NCBI GenBank assembly: GCA_963699755.1
Contig: CAVOVB010000002.1
Location: 576,001 to 640,000 of the forward strand
Length of the DNA: 64,000 nt
Direction of reading: 5' to 3'
DNA from: an uncultured delta proteobacterium
GTDB taxonomy: Bacteria; Myxococcota_A; Polyangia; Polyangiales; Houyiibacteriaceae
The notes beneath the pieces were generated by a model. That model ran no database searches. It saw only the letters and a list, made by a program, of their open reading frames with translations, and had not been told where the DNA came from. Positions within the stretch are counted from its first letter, which is position 1. The number at the start of each line of letters is the position of its first letter. A program made the translations under genes and the position numbers. This document shows positions 42,839 through 52,991 of the stretch, piece after piece.

Positions 42839-43092
42839 TCCGGGCGGCTCTTCTCTTCTTGATCCGCCTCTACCAGATGACGCTGTCGCGCCTGATCGGT
42901 CCTTCGTGCCGATTCGAGCCCTCTTGCTCGCACTATACCGCAACCTGCATCGAGCGGTTCGGCGCACTGCGAGGCTCGTGGCTGGGACTGAAGCGAATCG
43001 GACGTTGCCACCCGTTGAATCCAGGCGGCTACGACCCCGCACCGCATCCCGAGCACCCTCAGCAAGAAACGCAAGAGGCGCGGCATGGATGA
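42835..43092 (+). CDS. yidD: Membrane protein insertion efficiency factor
   Basis: CRFEPSCSHY...RIGRCHP...GGYDP. Confidence 0.95.
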   Translation: MIRAALLFLIRLYQMTLSRLIGPSCRFEPSCSHYTATCIERFGALRGSWLGLKRIGRCHPLNPGGYDPAPHPEHPQQETQEARHG

Positions 43093-44881
43093 TCGAAAGC
43101 AACCGCCTGTTGCCCTCATGCTACTGCCGCTCGTTGCGCTCGGGGCGATGCTGGCTGTTCAGCATTTTGCCCCCCCGAAGCCGAAGGCCCAGACCGAAGA
43201 GCTTCCGGTCGACCAGGCGGCAGCAGCGGTTCCCGAGGAGGCCGAACGCAGCGGCACCGAGGCGGCTCCGCCGCAGCTATCGCCGGTAGATGCGCGCTCT
43301 CGCGTCGACTCGCAGCAGATTTACAGGCTCGAAAGCGATCGCATCATCGCATCCTTCACCGACCTGAACACCGGCATGGTGAGCTTGCGGGTCAAAGGCG
43401 AGCGGTACCACGACGAAGAGGGAAACCCCATCGAGCTGGTGACGACCGACAAAGAGCAGTACCTGCCGCTCACGCCTTCGTTCTCCGGCGTGAGGATTCC
43501 TGCCGATGCGCGATGGCAAATGGTCGAGGCCACCAAAGAAAGGCTGCGCTTCCAGTGGGCGGGCGACGGGGTTTCGGTCACCCGTACTTGGGAGCTCGCT
43601 GAACCGCCCTTTCAACTTCACTCCTCGATCGAGGTTCGGAACGACGCCTCCAGCTCGAGGTCGGTGGGTGTGGGGATCACCTCCGCCCATTACGTTCGCC
43701 GCGCAGACGAGAAAGCTGGCTTCATCGGAAGGCCGTCCCCGGCGCTGAGCCACGGGATCTGCCAGCAAGGCGACGACACGATTCGGGAGGACCGAGAAGG
43801 CCTCTTGAGCGAAGACGAGCTGCGTCCGATGCAACCGCATAGCTACGGCCCCGGCATCGAGTACGTCGCGCTCTGCAGCGTCTACTTCGCCATCATTGCG
43901 GCGCCGGAGGGCGGCAGCGCCGAGCGCTGTGACATGTTGACGACCGATCGCGGTGGGACCGTGAAGGAACCGGACGGGAGCCTCTTCGAGGCAAGGCTCA
44001 CCTACGCACCACAGGAGATCGGTCCCGGAGAAACTGCAACCTTCCGGACCGCGGTCTATGCCGGTCCCAAGGACTACGACGCGCTCGAGGAGTTCGGGCA
44101 CAGCGCTTCGAAGGTCATCGACCTCGGATGGTTCAGCTTCATCGCCCGAGGGATGAGCTGGCTTCTGCGCACGATCTACGGATTCATCGGCAACTGGGGC
44201 GTCGCGATCATCCTCCTCACTCTTCTCGTCCGAGTGTTGCTGCTGCCGTTCGTCGTCCCACAGTTCCGGAACATGGCGAAGCAGCGCGCGCTCAAGCCCG
44301 AGATCGATAAGATCAACGAGCTGTACAAGGACGATCGCGAAAAGAAGGGCGCCGCGATGATGGAGCTCTGGCGCAAGCACAAGGTAAACCCGCTTGGCGG
44401 CTGCCTCCCAGTGCTTCTGCAGATGCCGATCTTCTTTGCGCTCTATCAGACGCTCTCGACGAGCATCGAGCTCTACCACGCGCCGTTCGTCCTATGGTGG
44501 ACCGACCTCTCCTCGCCGGACCCCTACTACGTATTACCAATCATCCTCGGCGCTCTGATGTTCATTCAGCAAAAGCTCACGCCGGTCCAAATGGACGCGA
44601 CGCAGGCCAAGGTCATGCTCTATGCCATGCCGCTGATGATGACGTTTTTCATGCTGCTTCTCCCTACCGGCCTTTGCTTGTACATGGTGACCAGCTCCGC
44701 CATCGGGATCACGCAGCAGCGATACATGTACTGGAAGATGGACCAAGAAACGTCAGCCCTGGCGACCAGCGGGGAGGACGGCGACGATGAACCAGATCAC
44801 GCGGCTGACGATACGGCAGCCGCCGCACCCAAGCAGGCCAAGCCCAGCAGAAAGAAGAGGACTCGCCGTGGACGAGCTTAA
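43085..44881 (+). CDS. yidC: Membrane protein insertase
   Basis: YAGPK, IDLGW, NWGVAIILLT, NPLGGCLP.LLQMPIF, DLSSPDPYY. Confidence 0.95.
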   Translation: MDDRKQPPVALMLLPLVALGAMLAVQHFAPPKPKAQTEELPVDQAAAAVPEEAERSGTEAAPPQLSPVDARSRVDSQQIYRLESDRIIASFTDLNTGMVSLRVKGERYHDEEGNPIELVTTDKEQYLPLTPSFSGVRIPADARWQMVEATKERLRFQWAGDGVSVTRTWELAEPPFQLHSSIEVRNDASSSRSVGVGITSAHYVRRADEKAGFIGRPSPALSHGICQQGDDTIREDREGLLSEDELRPMQPHSYGPGIEYVALCSVYFAIIAAPEGGSAERCDMLTTDRGGTVKEPDGSLFEARLTYAPQEIGPGETATFRTAVYAGPKDYDALEEFGHSASKVIDLGWFSFIARGMSWLLRTIYGFIGNWGVAIILLTLLVRVLLLPFVVPQFRNMAKQRALKPEIDKINELYKDDREKKGAAMMELWRKHKVNPLGGCLPVLLQMPIFFALYQTLSTSIELYHAPFVLWWTDLSSPDPYYVLPIILGALMFIQQKLTPVQMDATQAKVMLYAMPLMMTFFMLLLPTGLCLYMVTSSAIGITQQRYMYWKMDQETSALATSGEDGDDEPDHAADDTAAAAPKQAKPSRKKRTRRGRA

Positions 44882-48204: not shown

Positions 48205-48232
48205 TTGCGGGCACGGAGGGGAGCGGTAGACT
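48205..48232 (+). promoter_or_regulatory. Probable sigma70-type promoter for the uORF-dsbA unit
   Basis: TTGCGG-N16-TAGACT, 14 nt upstream of ATG 48247. Confidence 0.5.
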
Positions 48233-48246
48233 CTGACTTCGCCTCG

Positions 48247-48603
48247 ATGAGACTTCCCCTCCACGCACTGGCTCTGGCCGCGATGCTTTCGTTGGATGCG
48301 GCATCCGTGGATGCTTCGGACTGCAGCTGCGAAGGGATATCCGTGGAGGGCTGCGGCGACAGCGTGCAGCTCCGCGAAGAGCCCGCCGGCCCGCCCCTGT
48401 GGTGCGAACGCACGGATGACCCGCGTTGCATGCCGGCGAGTACCCACGGCAGTTCCGTCCAGACGCTGGTGCCTGTCGTGATGAGCTGGGCTCAACCGAT
48501 TCGATGGGACGCGCCTCCGCGCACCGGCATCCGACTGGAAGTACGGGCCGACGGCGAGCCGCGGACTGAGTACTCACGAAGAGTCGAACGACCGCCGCGC
48601 TAG
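48247..48603 (+). CDS. Small exported Cys-containing protein ending in RPPR; candidate arrest-peptide leader ORF
   Basis: 118 aa, signal peptide MRLPLHALALAAMLSLDAASVDA, Cys at 26/28/36/53/61, C-terminus RRVERPPR-stop. Confidence 0.6.
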   Translation: MRLPLHALALAAMLSLDAASVDASDCSCEGISVEGCGDSVQLREEPAGPPLWCERTDDPRCMPASTHGSSVQTLVPVVMSWAQPIRWDAPPRTGIRLEVRADGEPRTEYSRRVERPPR

Positions 48604-48707
48604 CATCGGCCGCCCTCAGCGGGCGGTCGTCTCGGCATCTGGTTTGTTCATTCGAACGTTGAGTTTGTTTTTAGCTCGCCGCGAAATCGTGGCGCGAGGA
48701 TAGAGAT

Positions 48708-50702
48708 ATGAGTAAAGGTTCATCGGTTTTGCTGGCCATCGTGATGGCGATCGCCGGGTTTGCGGTCGGTCATGTCGTTGGCTCACGGTCCCCTTCCGAC
48801 GGAGGAGTCGCCGACTCGGGCAGTGGGGAGGAAGCGAAGGCGGCCGACGTCAAGGTCGCTCAAGATGTCGAACGCTACAAGGTTCCAGTAACCAGCGAAC
48901 AACCCTCCAAGGGTCCCAAGGACGCACTCGTGACCATCGTCGAGTTCAGCGAGTTCCAGTGCCCCTTCTGCGCTCGGGTCTTGCCGACCACAAAGGAGAT
49001 CCTCGACACATACGGCGACAAAGTCCGTCTGGTCTGGCGCAACAACCCCTTGGACTTCCACAACAACGCCGCTCCAGCGGCTGCAGTGGCCATGGAAGCC
49101 TACGCGCAAGGGGGCGATGAAAAGTTCTGGGAGGTGCACGATGTGCTCTTCGCGAACCAGCGGGCGCTCGGCCGGACGGAGCTCGAAGGCTATGCGGAGA
49201 AAGCCGGGCTAGACCCAGCGAAGGTCAAGAGTGCGCTCGACGAAGGCACCCACAAAAAGGCGATCGACGGCGACCAGGCCTTGGCGGCCCAACTCGGAGC
49301 ACGTGGTACGCCGTACTTCTTCGTCAACGGACGACAGCTGCGAGGGGCACAGCCCTTTGCCGCGTTCAAGACGGTCATCGACGAAGAGATCGCAACCGCC
49401 GAGAGCCTCCTCAAGAAGGGTGTGAAGAAGGAGCAAATCTACGCGACCTTGACCAAGGACGGTCTGACCAAAGCAGCGGCCCCCACGCCGGAGGCGCCGA
49501 AGGCCGGTCAGCCGGACCCGAAGGCGGTCTATAAGGTTCCGCTCAAGGGCGACGAGCCGCAGAAGGGTCCGGACGACGCGCTGGTCACGATCGTTGAAAT
49601 CAGCGACTTCGAGTGCCCGTTCTGCGGTCGAGTGGAGCCCACAATCAAAGAGATTGAAGACAAGTACGGCAACGACGTCCGCATCGTCTGGATGAACAAC
49701 CCTCTCCCGTTCCACAAGAACGCCAAGGGCGCGGCCAATGCAGCGCTGGAAGCCTACGCGCAGAAGGGAGACAAGGGCTTTTGGGCGATGCATGACAAGA
49801 TGTTCGCAAACCAGAAGGCTCTCACGACCGACAACCTCGAGCAGTGGGCGAAGGAGCAGGGACTGAACATGTCCAAGTTCAAGAAGGCGCTAGCCGAAGA
49901 CAAGTACGGCAAGACCATCGCGGAGCAGCAGGCGCTGGCCAACCGCTTGGGAGCCCGTGGAACCCCTGCGTTCTTCATCAACGGGCGCAACCTTCGGGGC
50001 GCGCAGCCACTGGCCGCCTTCACGACGGTGATCGACGAGGAGCTCGCCAAGGCCAAGGCGCTCGTTGCGAAGGGCACGCCCCGCGCCAAGGTCTATGAGA
50101 CGACGATCGCCACGGGCGAGACGGGCCCGAAGACCGAGCCGGCTGCTGCAGCTCCGGACGCCAACAAGGTCTACGACATCCCGGTGCCGAAGAATGCCCC
50201 AACCAAGGGCGCGGCCAAGGCGAAGGTTGTGATTCAGGAGTTCAGCGACTTTCAGTGCCCCTTCTGCAGCCGGGTGAACCCGACGATCGCCCAAGTGGTC
50301 AAGGAGTACGGGGACAAGGTCGAAATCGTCTGGCGCGACTACCCGCTTCCCTTCCACAAGGACGCGCAACCGGCGGCTCAGGCGGGACGCGAGGTCTTTG
50401 CTCAGAAGGGCAACAAGGCTTTTTGGGCCTATCACGACCTTCTCTTCGCCAATCAGAAGACGCTCTCCCGCGAAAACCTTGAGAAGTTCGCGGAGCAGGT
50501 CGGCGGAATCGACATGAAGGCGTTCAAGGCCGCACTCGATTCTGAGAAGCACAAGGCCGCGGTCGAGGCAGACATGGCGGCGGTGACCAAAGCGGGTGCG
50601 CGAATCGGTACGCCGTCGTTCTTCATCAACGGTAAGCTGCTCCAGGGCGCACAGCCGTACCCCGCGTTCAAGGCCGCGATCGACGAAGCGCTCAAGAACT
50701 GA
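48708..50702 (+). CDS. Triple DsbA-like thioredoxin-domain protein
   Basis: N-terminal signal/TM and three repeats, each with CPFC and a cis-Pro loop GTP(Y/A/S)FF.NG..L.GAQP. Confidence 0.92.
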   Translation: MSKGSSVLLAIVMAIAGFAVGHVVGSRSPSDGGVADSGSGEEAKAADVKVAQDVERYKVPVTSEQPSKGPKDALVTIVEFSEFQCPFCARVLPTTKEILDTYGDKVRLVWRNNPLDFHNNAAPAAAVAMEAYAQGGDEKFWEVHDVLFANQRALGRTELEGYAEKAGLDPAKVKSALDEGTHKKAIDGDQALAAQLGARGTPYFFVNGRQLRGAQPFAAFKTVIDEEIATAESLLKKGVKKEQIYATLTKDGLTKAAAPTPEAPKAGQPDPKAVYKVPLKGDEPQKGPDDALVTIVEISDFECPFCGRVEPTIKEIEDKYGNDVRIVWMNNPLPFHKNAKGAANAALEAYAQKGDKGFWAMHDKMFANQKALTTDNLEQWAKEQGLNMSKFKKALAEDKYGKTIAEQQALANRLGARGTPAFFINGRNLRGAQPLAAFTTVIDEELAKAKALVAKGTPRAKVYETTIATGETGPKTEPAAAAPDANKVYDIPVPKNAPTKGAAKAKVVIQEFSDFQCPFCSRVNPTIAQVVKEYGDKVEIVWRDYPLPFHKDAQPAAQAGREVFAQKGNKAFWAYHDLLFANQKTLSRENLEKFAEQVGGIDMKAFKAALDSEKHKAAVEADMAAVTKAGARIGTPSFFINGKLLQGAQPYPAFKAAIDEALKN

Positions 50703-50719: not shown

Positions 50720-50762
50720 AGGACGGGGCAGGTTCGCACGTCGGGCCTGCCCCGTCCTTTTG
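50720..50762 (+). terminator. Intrinsic terminator
   Basis: AGGACGGGGCAGG...CCTGCCCCGTCCT (13-bp stem) followed by a T run. Confidence 0.85.
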
Positions 50763-50831
50763 ACACGCAGGGGTGGACACACTACATTCCGTCCCGTTCT
50801 AAAAACTAAAGTATTTTCAAGGTGTTGACGC

Positions 50832-52202: not shown

Positions 52203-52991
52203 ATGGGGTTCCTCAGCCGTCTGGCACAACTGATCAAGAGCAACATCAACGACCTGATCAACAAGTCGGAAGATCCGGAGAAGATGCTGAACCAAGTCAT
52301 CGTCGAGATGAATCAGCAACTGGTCGAGGCGAAGAAGCAGGTCGCGGTCGCCATCGCCGACGAAAAGAGGCTCCAAAAGCAGTTCGGGAACGAAGCAACC
52401 AAGTCACAGGACTGGGAAAGCAAAGCCATGCTCGCGGTCCGGTCGGGTGACGACGAGCTGGCAAAGGAGGCCCTGCTCCGGCGCAAGGAGCACGACGTGA
52501 TCGCCGCCCAATACAAAGAGCAATGGGAGCGGCAAAAGGCGCTCACCGATCAGTTGAAGACCGCACTCAAGGCGTTGAACCACAAAATCGGCGAGGCGCA
52601 GCGCAAGAAAAACGTGCTGATCGCTCGAAAACGCCGCGCCGAAGCGATGAAGAGCATCCAGGAAACGATGAGCGGTCTGTCCGATGCGAGCGCGTTCGAA
52701 ACCTTCGACCGAATGGCCGAGCAGATCGACCAAATGGAAGCCGAGGCCGAGGCTGGCGCCGAGGTCGCCGAGCAGTACACCGGCGACATCCTCAAGCATC
52801 GATTCTCGGAGCTGGAAGCTACCGCGGGCGCCGACCTCGAGCTCGAGGCCCTCAAGCGCAAGATGGGGCTCATCCCCGCCGAGGAGCCCAGCGTGAGCGC
52901 CCGGGTCGCCGCCCCTGGGGAGCAATATGAAGAAGAGGAGCTTGCCGAGCTCGAAGAAGCCCTCGACGAGCTCAAGCGCCGGGAGCGCTGA
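52203..52991 (+). CDS. pspA: PspA/IM30 family protein
   Basis: MGFLSRLAQLIKSNINDLI...EDPEKML...FDRMAEQIDQMEAEAEA; long coiled coil. Confidence 0.92.
   Translation: MGFLSRLAQLIKSNINDLINKSEDPEKMLNQVIVEMNQQLVEAKKQVAVAIADEKRLQKQFGNEATKSQDWESKAMLAVRSGDDELAKEALLRRKEHDVIAAQYKEQWERQKALTDQLKTALKALNHKIGEAQRKKNVLIARKRRAEAMKSIQETMSGLSDASAFETFDRMAEQIDQMEAEAEAGAEVAEQYTGDILKHRFSELEATAGADLELEALKRKMGLIPAEEPSVSARVAAPGEQYEEEELAELEEALDELKRRER

Follow-up and report, generated by a model that had tools for sequence, protein, structure and literature searches.

The 64,000-nt window analyzed here (contig CAVOVB010000002.1, positions 576,001 to 640,000 of the forward strand; all coordinates refer to the window) originates from an uncultured delta proteobacterium of the order Polyangiales and contains a small open reading frame (ORF) directly upstream of a gene for a DsbA-like protein with three Thioredoxin_4 domains. 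This raises the question whether the small ORF is a leader that controls the synthesis of the oxidoreductase encoded behind it, as had been proposed from the DNA letters alone (referred to as the original prediction). The leader ORF is a conserved gene coupled to dsbA and belongs to a previously unannotated family. It is very probably a regulatory arrest leader, and a probability of about 0.58 is assigned to the more specific reading, predicted from comparative evidence, that it is an exported arrest peptide which would monitor Dsb-dependent disulfide formation in the periplasm.

A conserved leader ORF upstream of dsbA

Translation confirmed the leader ORF on the plus strand (48247 to 48603). 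It codes for 118 amino acids with Cys residues at positions 26, 28, 36, 53 and 61, ends with RRVERPPR directly before the stop codon, and C61 is located 57 residues from the C-terminus. After a spacer of 104 nt the dsbA-like gene starts (48708 to 50702, plus strand, 664 amino acids), and the triple CPFC expected in its product was found at residues 85, 303 and 517, one in each of three Pfam Thioredoxin_4/DSBA domains, behind a hydrophobic N-terminal anchor. The putative Sec-type signal peptide of the leader (residues 1 to 23; 48247 to 48315) was backed by inspection, with an MR start, a hydrophobic core, V-D-A at positions 21 to 23, and A23 being invariant in 41 homologs.

Strong homologs of the leader could be identified in 32 of 36 genomes of the same genus, and the differences in their alignments were concentrated at the third codon position (6021, 4526 and 12936 at positions 1, 2 and 3, respectively). 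Therefore, the ORF is more than a chance reading frame. In all 30 genus loci, including the one studied here, the distance from the last core Cys to the C-terminus is always 57 residues and dsbA starts 89 to 109 nt past the leader stop, and the codons of RPPR and WCER vary synonymously. The leader profile matched 128 of 401 genomes of the order, with a single locus per genome. From the 80 matches outside the genus 79 were fetched; the one left out (G150) is counted in the 128 of 401 and in the VKOR tally given below, and possibly in the Rho and DsbB tallies, and no other result depends on it. A DsbA-like gene, mostly with three domains, directly follows the leader on the same strand in 77 of these 79 loci, and the remaining two (L086 and L163) end at contig edges. 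One locus (L139) appears frameshifted.

A profile search of 1.84 billion representatives resulted in 21 proteins, mostly distant leaders with both motifs described below, and the source names of the homologs point to Polyangiales/Myxococcota. With the W-C-x7-C profile no convincing member was found outside the order; two genomes of the class matched via the tail alone and one genome of the phylum matched at E 8.5e-4. Pfam and NCBIfam scans of the ORF and the 21 family members gave no meaningful family, and DUF2946 (PF11162) matched neither the ORF nor any of the 21, even with E values of up to 1 allowed. Among the named ESM Atlas clusters, those closest to homolog P0072 are DUF2946, DUF6660, DUF6769 and CzcI, which is taken as a lead only, as the similarity covers just 99 of 256 features.

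In 78 aligned cores C53, C61, R115, P116 and P117 were the only invariant residues. The first two belong to the core motif W52-C53-x7-C61 (48400 to 48429), with the consensus W-C-x3-D-D-P-R-C, in which W, P and R are kept at 92-94% and the C-x7-C spacing in 64 of 65 distant leaders. The other three belong to the candidate stall motif R-V-E-R-P-P-R (48580 to 48600), for which the consensus across leaders is R-[LVI]-[ED]-R-P-P-R, with R-P-P kept in 78/78 leaders despite synonymous codon variation. The linker between both motifs (48430 to 48579) is conserved in length and free in sequence: apart from P63 and positions close to the tail no column exceeds ∼37% identity, and 52-61 residues separate the second core Cys from the Arg of RPP (mean 56.2, SD 2.1, n = 65 distant leaders; 54 residues from C61 to R115 in the own leader). 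Over the same 65 leaders the distance from the start Met to the first core Cys is 55-128 residues with an SD of 15.2. Only 16 Cys were counted over 73 loci in the 50 residues before RPP, compared to 147 in the next 20. C26, C28 and C36 (48322 to 48354) include a D-C-x-C at the predicted mature start; C-x-C occurs within residues 16-45 in 38 of 65 distant leaders, and 64 of these 65 have at least one additional Cys ahead of the core pair, close to where the mature protein is predicted to start. A hydrophobic, signal-like start was found by rule in 65 of 77 distant leaders. The search profile held both motifs including the RPP tail, and the invariance and the length range are therefore partly built in. 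Among the features for which conservation was to be expected under the original prediction, the signal-like start, W-C-x7-C, the RPP tail, the synteny with dsbA and the Cys-to-tail distance were conserved well outside the genus, and the spacer length was conserved within the genus only (∼90-380 nt elsewhere, where some start calls are uncertain). The original prediction withstood those of its refuting tests that can be made by computation, and is supported.

The promoter-like site postulated upstream of the leader (TTGCGG, 16 nt, TAGACT; 48205 to 48232, plus strand) scored under the threshold of a consensus scan. The same layout, TTG[CAT]...TAnnnT at no more than 70 nt upstream, could be observed in genus loci and for 52 of the 65 distant leaders, and all but one of these 52 have the 16-nt spacer; the genome-wide background is 0.02 per kb, with the pattern being derived from the same leaders on which it was counted. 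A Shine-Dalgarno (SD)-like word was found in just 4 of 65 distant leaders. Judged from these sequences, the site implies a very short 5' untranslated region (UTR) without SD. The AlphaFold model of the leader had a mean pLDDT of 50.9 and a pTM of 0.26, a confidence too low for a fold search, and the peptide is predicted to be mostly disordered; predicted disorder and a short SD-less 5' UTR would both fit a regulatory peptide. A separate dsbA promoter in the spacer, which would have spoken against control by the leader, was not found: promoters of the leader's type occurred in 0 of 126 spacers, with ∼0.5 expected by chance and other promoter types being possible.

An independent test was made from the side of dsbA. 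Of 301 genomes of the class, 248 contain close dsbA homologs, and upstream regions were examined for 60 of the best-scoring dsbA loci, located in 59 genomes that lack a match to the core profile. A signal-bearing ORF ending in [RH]PP plus up to 8 residues and located 20-350 nt upstream was present at 23 of 60 loci (24 with L179, for which the start was miscalled), compared to 1 of 1615 long ORFs in the control with the own genome, a number that rises to 31 when the hydrophobic filter is dropped. The 23 Cys leaders belong to other sequence families, unrelated to the core family; in families f17, f39 and f16 the conserved Cys residues are located 55-68 residues from the tail. Among the misses, 8 loci were flagged with another dsbA-like gene upstream and 3 were without a usable start. 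In five small genomes (G039, G041, G043, G062 and G064) dsbA was kept and no leader was found by this rule, which suggests a loss of control upon genome reduction.

Several side observations were made in this set. Loci L166 to L170, L184 and L218 lie in small genomes (1.8-4.1 Mb), where the triple dsbA is kept and no leader was found by the rule. Internal TGA stops in the dsbA match at L197 (G402 C117) and L172 (G413 C169) may be assembly errors; L197 looks frameshifted yet keeps a Cys leader ending in LLRPP. A second multi-domain dsbA is found in tandem behind the first in G151 C1, G091 C304, G087 C38, G137 C50 and others. Leaders with a [DE]RPPR tail and a hydrophobic segment, without a Cys cluster, were found at L165:433-1059, L165:2599-2952 and L164:454-939; one of those in L165 precedes a gene for the beta subunit of a Na+-transporting decarboxylase (OAD_beta) and another a small membrane ORF. 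Stalling at a [DE]RPPR tail may thus be a more general feature of leaders in the class.

Proposed mechanism and the RNA between leader and dsbA

In the proposed mechanism the nascent chain would be led through SecYEG by its signal peptide, and a pause of the ribosome at R-V-E-R-P-P-R would coincide with the emergence of C53 and C61 in the periplasm. With ample Dsb activity, oxidation or folding of the Cys residues would pull on the chain and release the pause, and dsbA expression would be low; alternatively, the pull might come from a mixed disulfide between a leader Cys and the membrane-anchored DsbA. With insufficient Dsb activity the pause would persist and dsbA expression would rise. Elfageih et al. 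(PMC7513700) put the path between the peptidyl transferase center and the periplasm at ∼50 residues, and in their work a SecM stall was measurably released by disulfide folding that depends on DsbA. While the ribosome is at P116/P117, C61 would be 55-56 residues out and would just have emerged. A Cys pair at the distance of emergence into the periplasm, encoded before a Dsb gene, fits a monitoring substrate. Evidence for this reading is the synteny, the two motifs with a free linker and the class-level test (23/60 versus 1/1615).

The enzyme itself resembles BdbD and ScsC-type proteins among solved structures by sequence. VKOR is present in 111 of 151 genomes of the order, which fits an oxidase role, and the own genome codes for a DsbD membrane domain. 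Because three domains in one chain recall trimeric ScsC isomerases, the leader might monitor the isomerization of its four or five Cys rather than their first oxidation. In the literature nothing was found on myxobacterial multi-domain DsbA. The own genome (G000) also codes, on C3 near 588990-589880, for another DsbA-like protein, a lipoprotein of one domain with CPHC whose N-terminal region is rich in Cys; a gene for a WCGPC thioredoxin follows.

How a stalled ribosome would act on dsbA is the least certain part of the proposed mechanism. In the genus the spacer contains three conserved hairpins, two with compensatory changes: a GC-rich hairpin just past the leader stop (48608 to 48628; 98% paired, 4 of 8 pairs changed on both sides), a small hairpin that covaries (48645 to 48658), and a GC-rich hairpin (48677 to 48694; 99% paired, one-sided changes only) that abuts the dsbA SD (48696 to 48700). 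The small hairpin is mutually exclusive with a long helix, predicted by alignment and folding in the genus only, between the last codons of the leader (48573-48593) and the middle of the spacer (48641-48663). In the alignment 87% of the cells of this helix are paired, without significant covariation. It beats synonymous recodings in 27 of 29 genus loci with a mean z of -1.48, where the windows were picked after viewing the alignment, related loci are not independent and 1 of 5 control windows gave z -1.13. In the leader tail the rare codons TCA (20/30) and AGA (21/30) are kept, versus 5% and 3% genome usage, respectively. Straight after the long helix a U-rich tract follows (48664 to 48672; 25 of the 29 genus spacers have a stretch of 8 nt with 6 or more U), which is possibly an attenuator tail or a ribosome standby site. 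The best guess for the genus is that a stalled ribosome would block the long helix, which would otherwise end at the U-tract like an intrinsic attenuator.

Rho could not be found in the own genome, nor in the leader-bearing families f1 (0/34), f22 (0/22), f3 (0/11) and f7 (0/5). In the order it was found in just 18 of 151 genomes, mainly of family f16 (15/20), and the 133 without a Rho match include GC-rich genomes of 10 Mb. As 1 of 12 Myxococcota is given as lacking Rho in the accessible part of PMC11347177, the loss of Rho in this order looks much wider than that list. Since Rho was not found in these lineages, a termination of the CruR type is unlikely; Rho-dependent control was also rejected for a weak C>G skew. 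Just two metatranscriptome runs contained a small share of the words of the locus, as contigs of relatives, and none of the pieces listed for these runs spans leader and dsbA.

Downstream of dsbA the original prediction had placed a terminator, which was absent from the consensus-scan list; by folding, a 16-bp stem (50721 to 50757) followed by TTTT, ending at 50761, could be observed on the plus strand. A separate promoter-like site precedes the next gene (50760-50788), and the U-tail of the terminator overlaps the TTGACA box of this site (50758-50788). The ORFs at 43085-44881 and 52203-52991 are presumably YidC-like and PspA-like, and if these labels are right, the region around the locus is rich in genes for envelope biogenesis and stress.

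Counter-evidence and alternative explanations

Several observations weigh against an arrest peptide that monitors disulfide formation. The tail is not a RAPP motif in either register, which corrects the original prediction: an Arg in the A-site (read as RPPR) and Glu or Asp at -2 (read as ERPP) both break the motif rules in the accessible parts of PMC12992588 and PMC7897499. Bare RPP is reported as non-stalling in the part of PMC4176338 that is accessible. Therefore, any arrest must depend on upstream residues. EF-P is present as well. The range of 52-61 residues may have been narrowed partly by the profile search, and in the class-level families f32, f33 and f46 the last conserved Cys is 85-94 residues from the tail. 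On the enzyme side, VKOR was found in 0 of 24 genomes of the own genus and DsbB in 0 of 101 genomes searched (0/12 in the genus), and because neither was found for the genus, the oxidase role is uncertain.

The remaining objections concern the RNA step. The U-tract occurs in just 13 of 73 distant spacers, the terminator-like state was predicted in just 14 of 29 genus loci, and in the own locus the rival hairpin forms in the stalled state. A simple switch at the ribosome-binding site (RBS) was not supported, as equilibrium folding gave no RBS opening upon stalling; for 20 of the 29 genus loci and 22 of the 42 distant loci, opening of the dsbA RBS was even harder in the stalled state. A general duplex between tail and spacer across the order was not supported either, as the broad duplex test gave no signal.

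The alternative that survives best, although unlikely, keeps the design of the arrest leader and lets the Cys residues sense periplasmic copper or another thiophilic metal, by which a DsbA/ScsC-like foldase would be induced against metal stress. The characterized leaders with Cys and a Pro-rich tail, CutF and CruR, are copper sensors, and the solved relatives of the DsbA domains include ScsC of copper resistance, with trimeric ScsC isomerases being tied to copper in the accessible text of PMC5524982 and PMC8900818. However, the core is C-x7-C and not CxxC or CxxxC, no His or Met is conserved in the leaders, DUF2946 is not matched, and the operon consists of dsbA alone, bounded by the terminator-like hairpin.

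It is improbable that the ORF instead codes for a small secreted partner or substrate of the triple DsbA that acts in trans and in which RPPR would serve for binding or sorting, without translational control. Co-transcription is plausible, the arrest is a prediction, and RPP alone is not a known staller, all of which would suit such a protein. A linker of fixed length and free sequence is not needed by a trans-acting protein, however, unrelated leaders have just the tail and its position in common, the peptide is predicted to be disordered, and the five small genomes mentioned above and two others keep dsbA without the leader.

Slightly less credit still is given to an arrest leader that reports on export or general periplasmic folding in the manner of SecM or VemP, in which the Cys residues would only stabilize a small pulling element. 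The conserved signal peptide and the Cys-free [DE]RPPR leaders before unrelated genes (L164, L165) would agree with it, but neither a Sec nor a YidC component is encoded directly downstream and the Cys pair is invariant at the distance where it would emerge in the periplasm. Regulation via RNA, or via translation of the ORF irrespective of the peptide sequence, is very unlikely, as the conserved hairpins and the rare TCA and AGA codons of the tail are outweighed by the retention of RPPR and WC-x7-C as amino acids with synonymous variation, across lineages with spacers of widely differing length and sequence.

Monitoring of disulfide formation by an exported arrest peptide is thus the preferred reading. 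Its broadest version is put forward tentatively, at somewhat below even odds: in exported leaders across the class, a new arrest motif, R-[LVI]-[ED]-R-P-P-R, and a ruler would put the Cys pair at the translocon exit, where the triple DsbA would pull the chain off the stall and cut its own synthesis via a Rho-independent RNA switch.

Comparison with known leader peptides

That no arrest peptide regulating a Dsb gene was known, as stated in the original prediction, is too strong a claim of novelty. In the accessible text of PMC12992588 (Fujiwara et al.), RAPP/RGPP leaders are enriched before DsbA and thioredoxin genes, and SLIV_27375, which has a conserved Cys pair, arrests; sensing of oxidative folding is suggested there, and regulation of the downstream gene is not demonstrated in that text. 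The family described here resembles SLIV_27375 as a small ORF upstream of a gene of the thioredoxin fold, with a localization signal, a conserved pair of Cys residues and an Arg/di-Pro motif at the C-terminus. As far as that text describes it, SLIV_27375 from Streptomyces is predicted to cross the membrane with four segments and carries a RAPP/RGPP motif, whereas the leaders of this family are soluble, of the signal-peptide type, with a fixed Cys-to-tail length and a tail R-[LVI]-[ED]-RPPR that escapes the RAPP/RGPP screen of that study. The RAPP/RGPP peptides ApdA, ApdP and RQH likewise are small signal-bearing ORFs with a C-terminal motif and a co-oriented gene directly downstream; a further mark of that group is an arrest of elongation that resists EF-P. 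Three leader candidates with a canonical RAPP/RGPP end are present in G000, two on the minus strand of C1 (near 329034 and 1897356) and one on the plus strand of C7 (near 98299); one of the three is His-rich and precedes an 840-aa exported protein, and two are paralogs before ∼530-aa membrane proteins, which are presumably SulP-like.

CutF from Rhodobacter (PMC9973294 and 10.1101/2025.02.05.636593, accessible portions) also has 118 amino acids, a Sec signal, periplasmic Cys residues and a Pro-rich tail; it controls the next gene in cis, as would the leader described here, and has a hairpin near the downstream RBS. In CutF, however, the motif is CxxxC, the tail PPP and the target a copper oxidase, compared to C-x7-C, RPPR and DsbA in this family, and the CutF stall opens an RBS stem-loop, whereas here the hairpin abuts the SD, a long spacer is present and no opening is predicted by folding. 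The broad CutF-like rule given in PMC9973294 (<150 aa, PP in the last 15 residues, a Sec signal and a co-oriented gene within 1000 nt) also describes this leader, and the list of 5,334 CutF-like proteins of that study may contain family members. CruR from Bordetella, a DUF2946 protein, shares the fixed spacing between Cys and stall motif and the long intergenic region. By the accessible part of PMC9426467 it differs in its CXXC, 45 residues, RAPP, signal independence and Rho-based control, versus C-x7-C, 52-61 residues and no Rho found for this family. DUF2946 leaders head operons for metal homeostasis, whereas here the next gene is dsbA-like in nearly all distant loci (77/79).

Like SecM, VemP and ApdA/ApdP, the leader would be exported, is a predicted client of the machine encoded downstream, and would act in a negative feedback by force-sensitive arrest; the target in SecM, MifM and VemP is Sec or YidC instead of a Dsb enzyme, and the motif differs. 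The downstream protein shares Thioredoxin_4, a CP-aromatic-C active site and a G-T-P loop with BdbD-type DsbA and trimeric ScsC, and differs from both by its three predicted catalytic domains in one membrane-anchored chain. The motif R-[LVI]-[ED]-R-P-P-R is not listed in the accessible part of PMC10987492. In the literature searched, outside of which most subscription papers fall, no mention of this family was found, nor of an arrest peptide for which regulation of a Dsb gene was demonstrated. By this comparison, the family likely works like monitoring peptides of the CutF/SecM type but is a member neither of DUF2946 nor of the RAPP family.

The exported arrest peptides known so far monitor protein export or copper. 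Feedback by a nascent chain on a Dsb gene has already been proposed in PMC12992588, and no demonstration was found in the literature searched. The family offers an unusually clean test of this idea, with two short invariant motifs, a ruler that matches the distance from ribosome to periplasm and more than 100 natural variants. If the proposed reading is true, the known stall motifs would be extended by one outside the RAPP type, which motif-based screens miss, and the family would show the coupling of a leader to its gene in bacteria in which Rho is not found.

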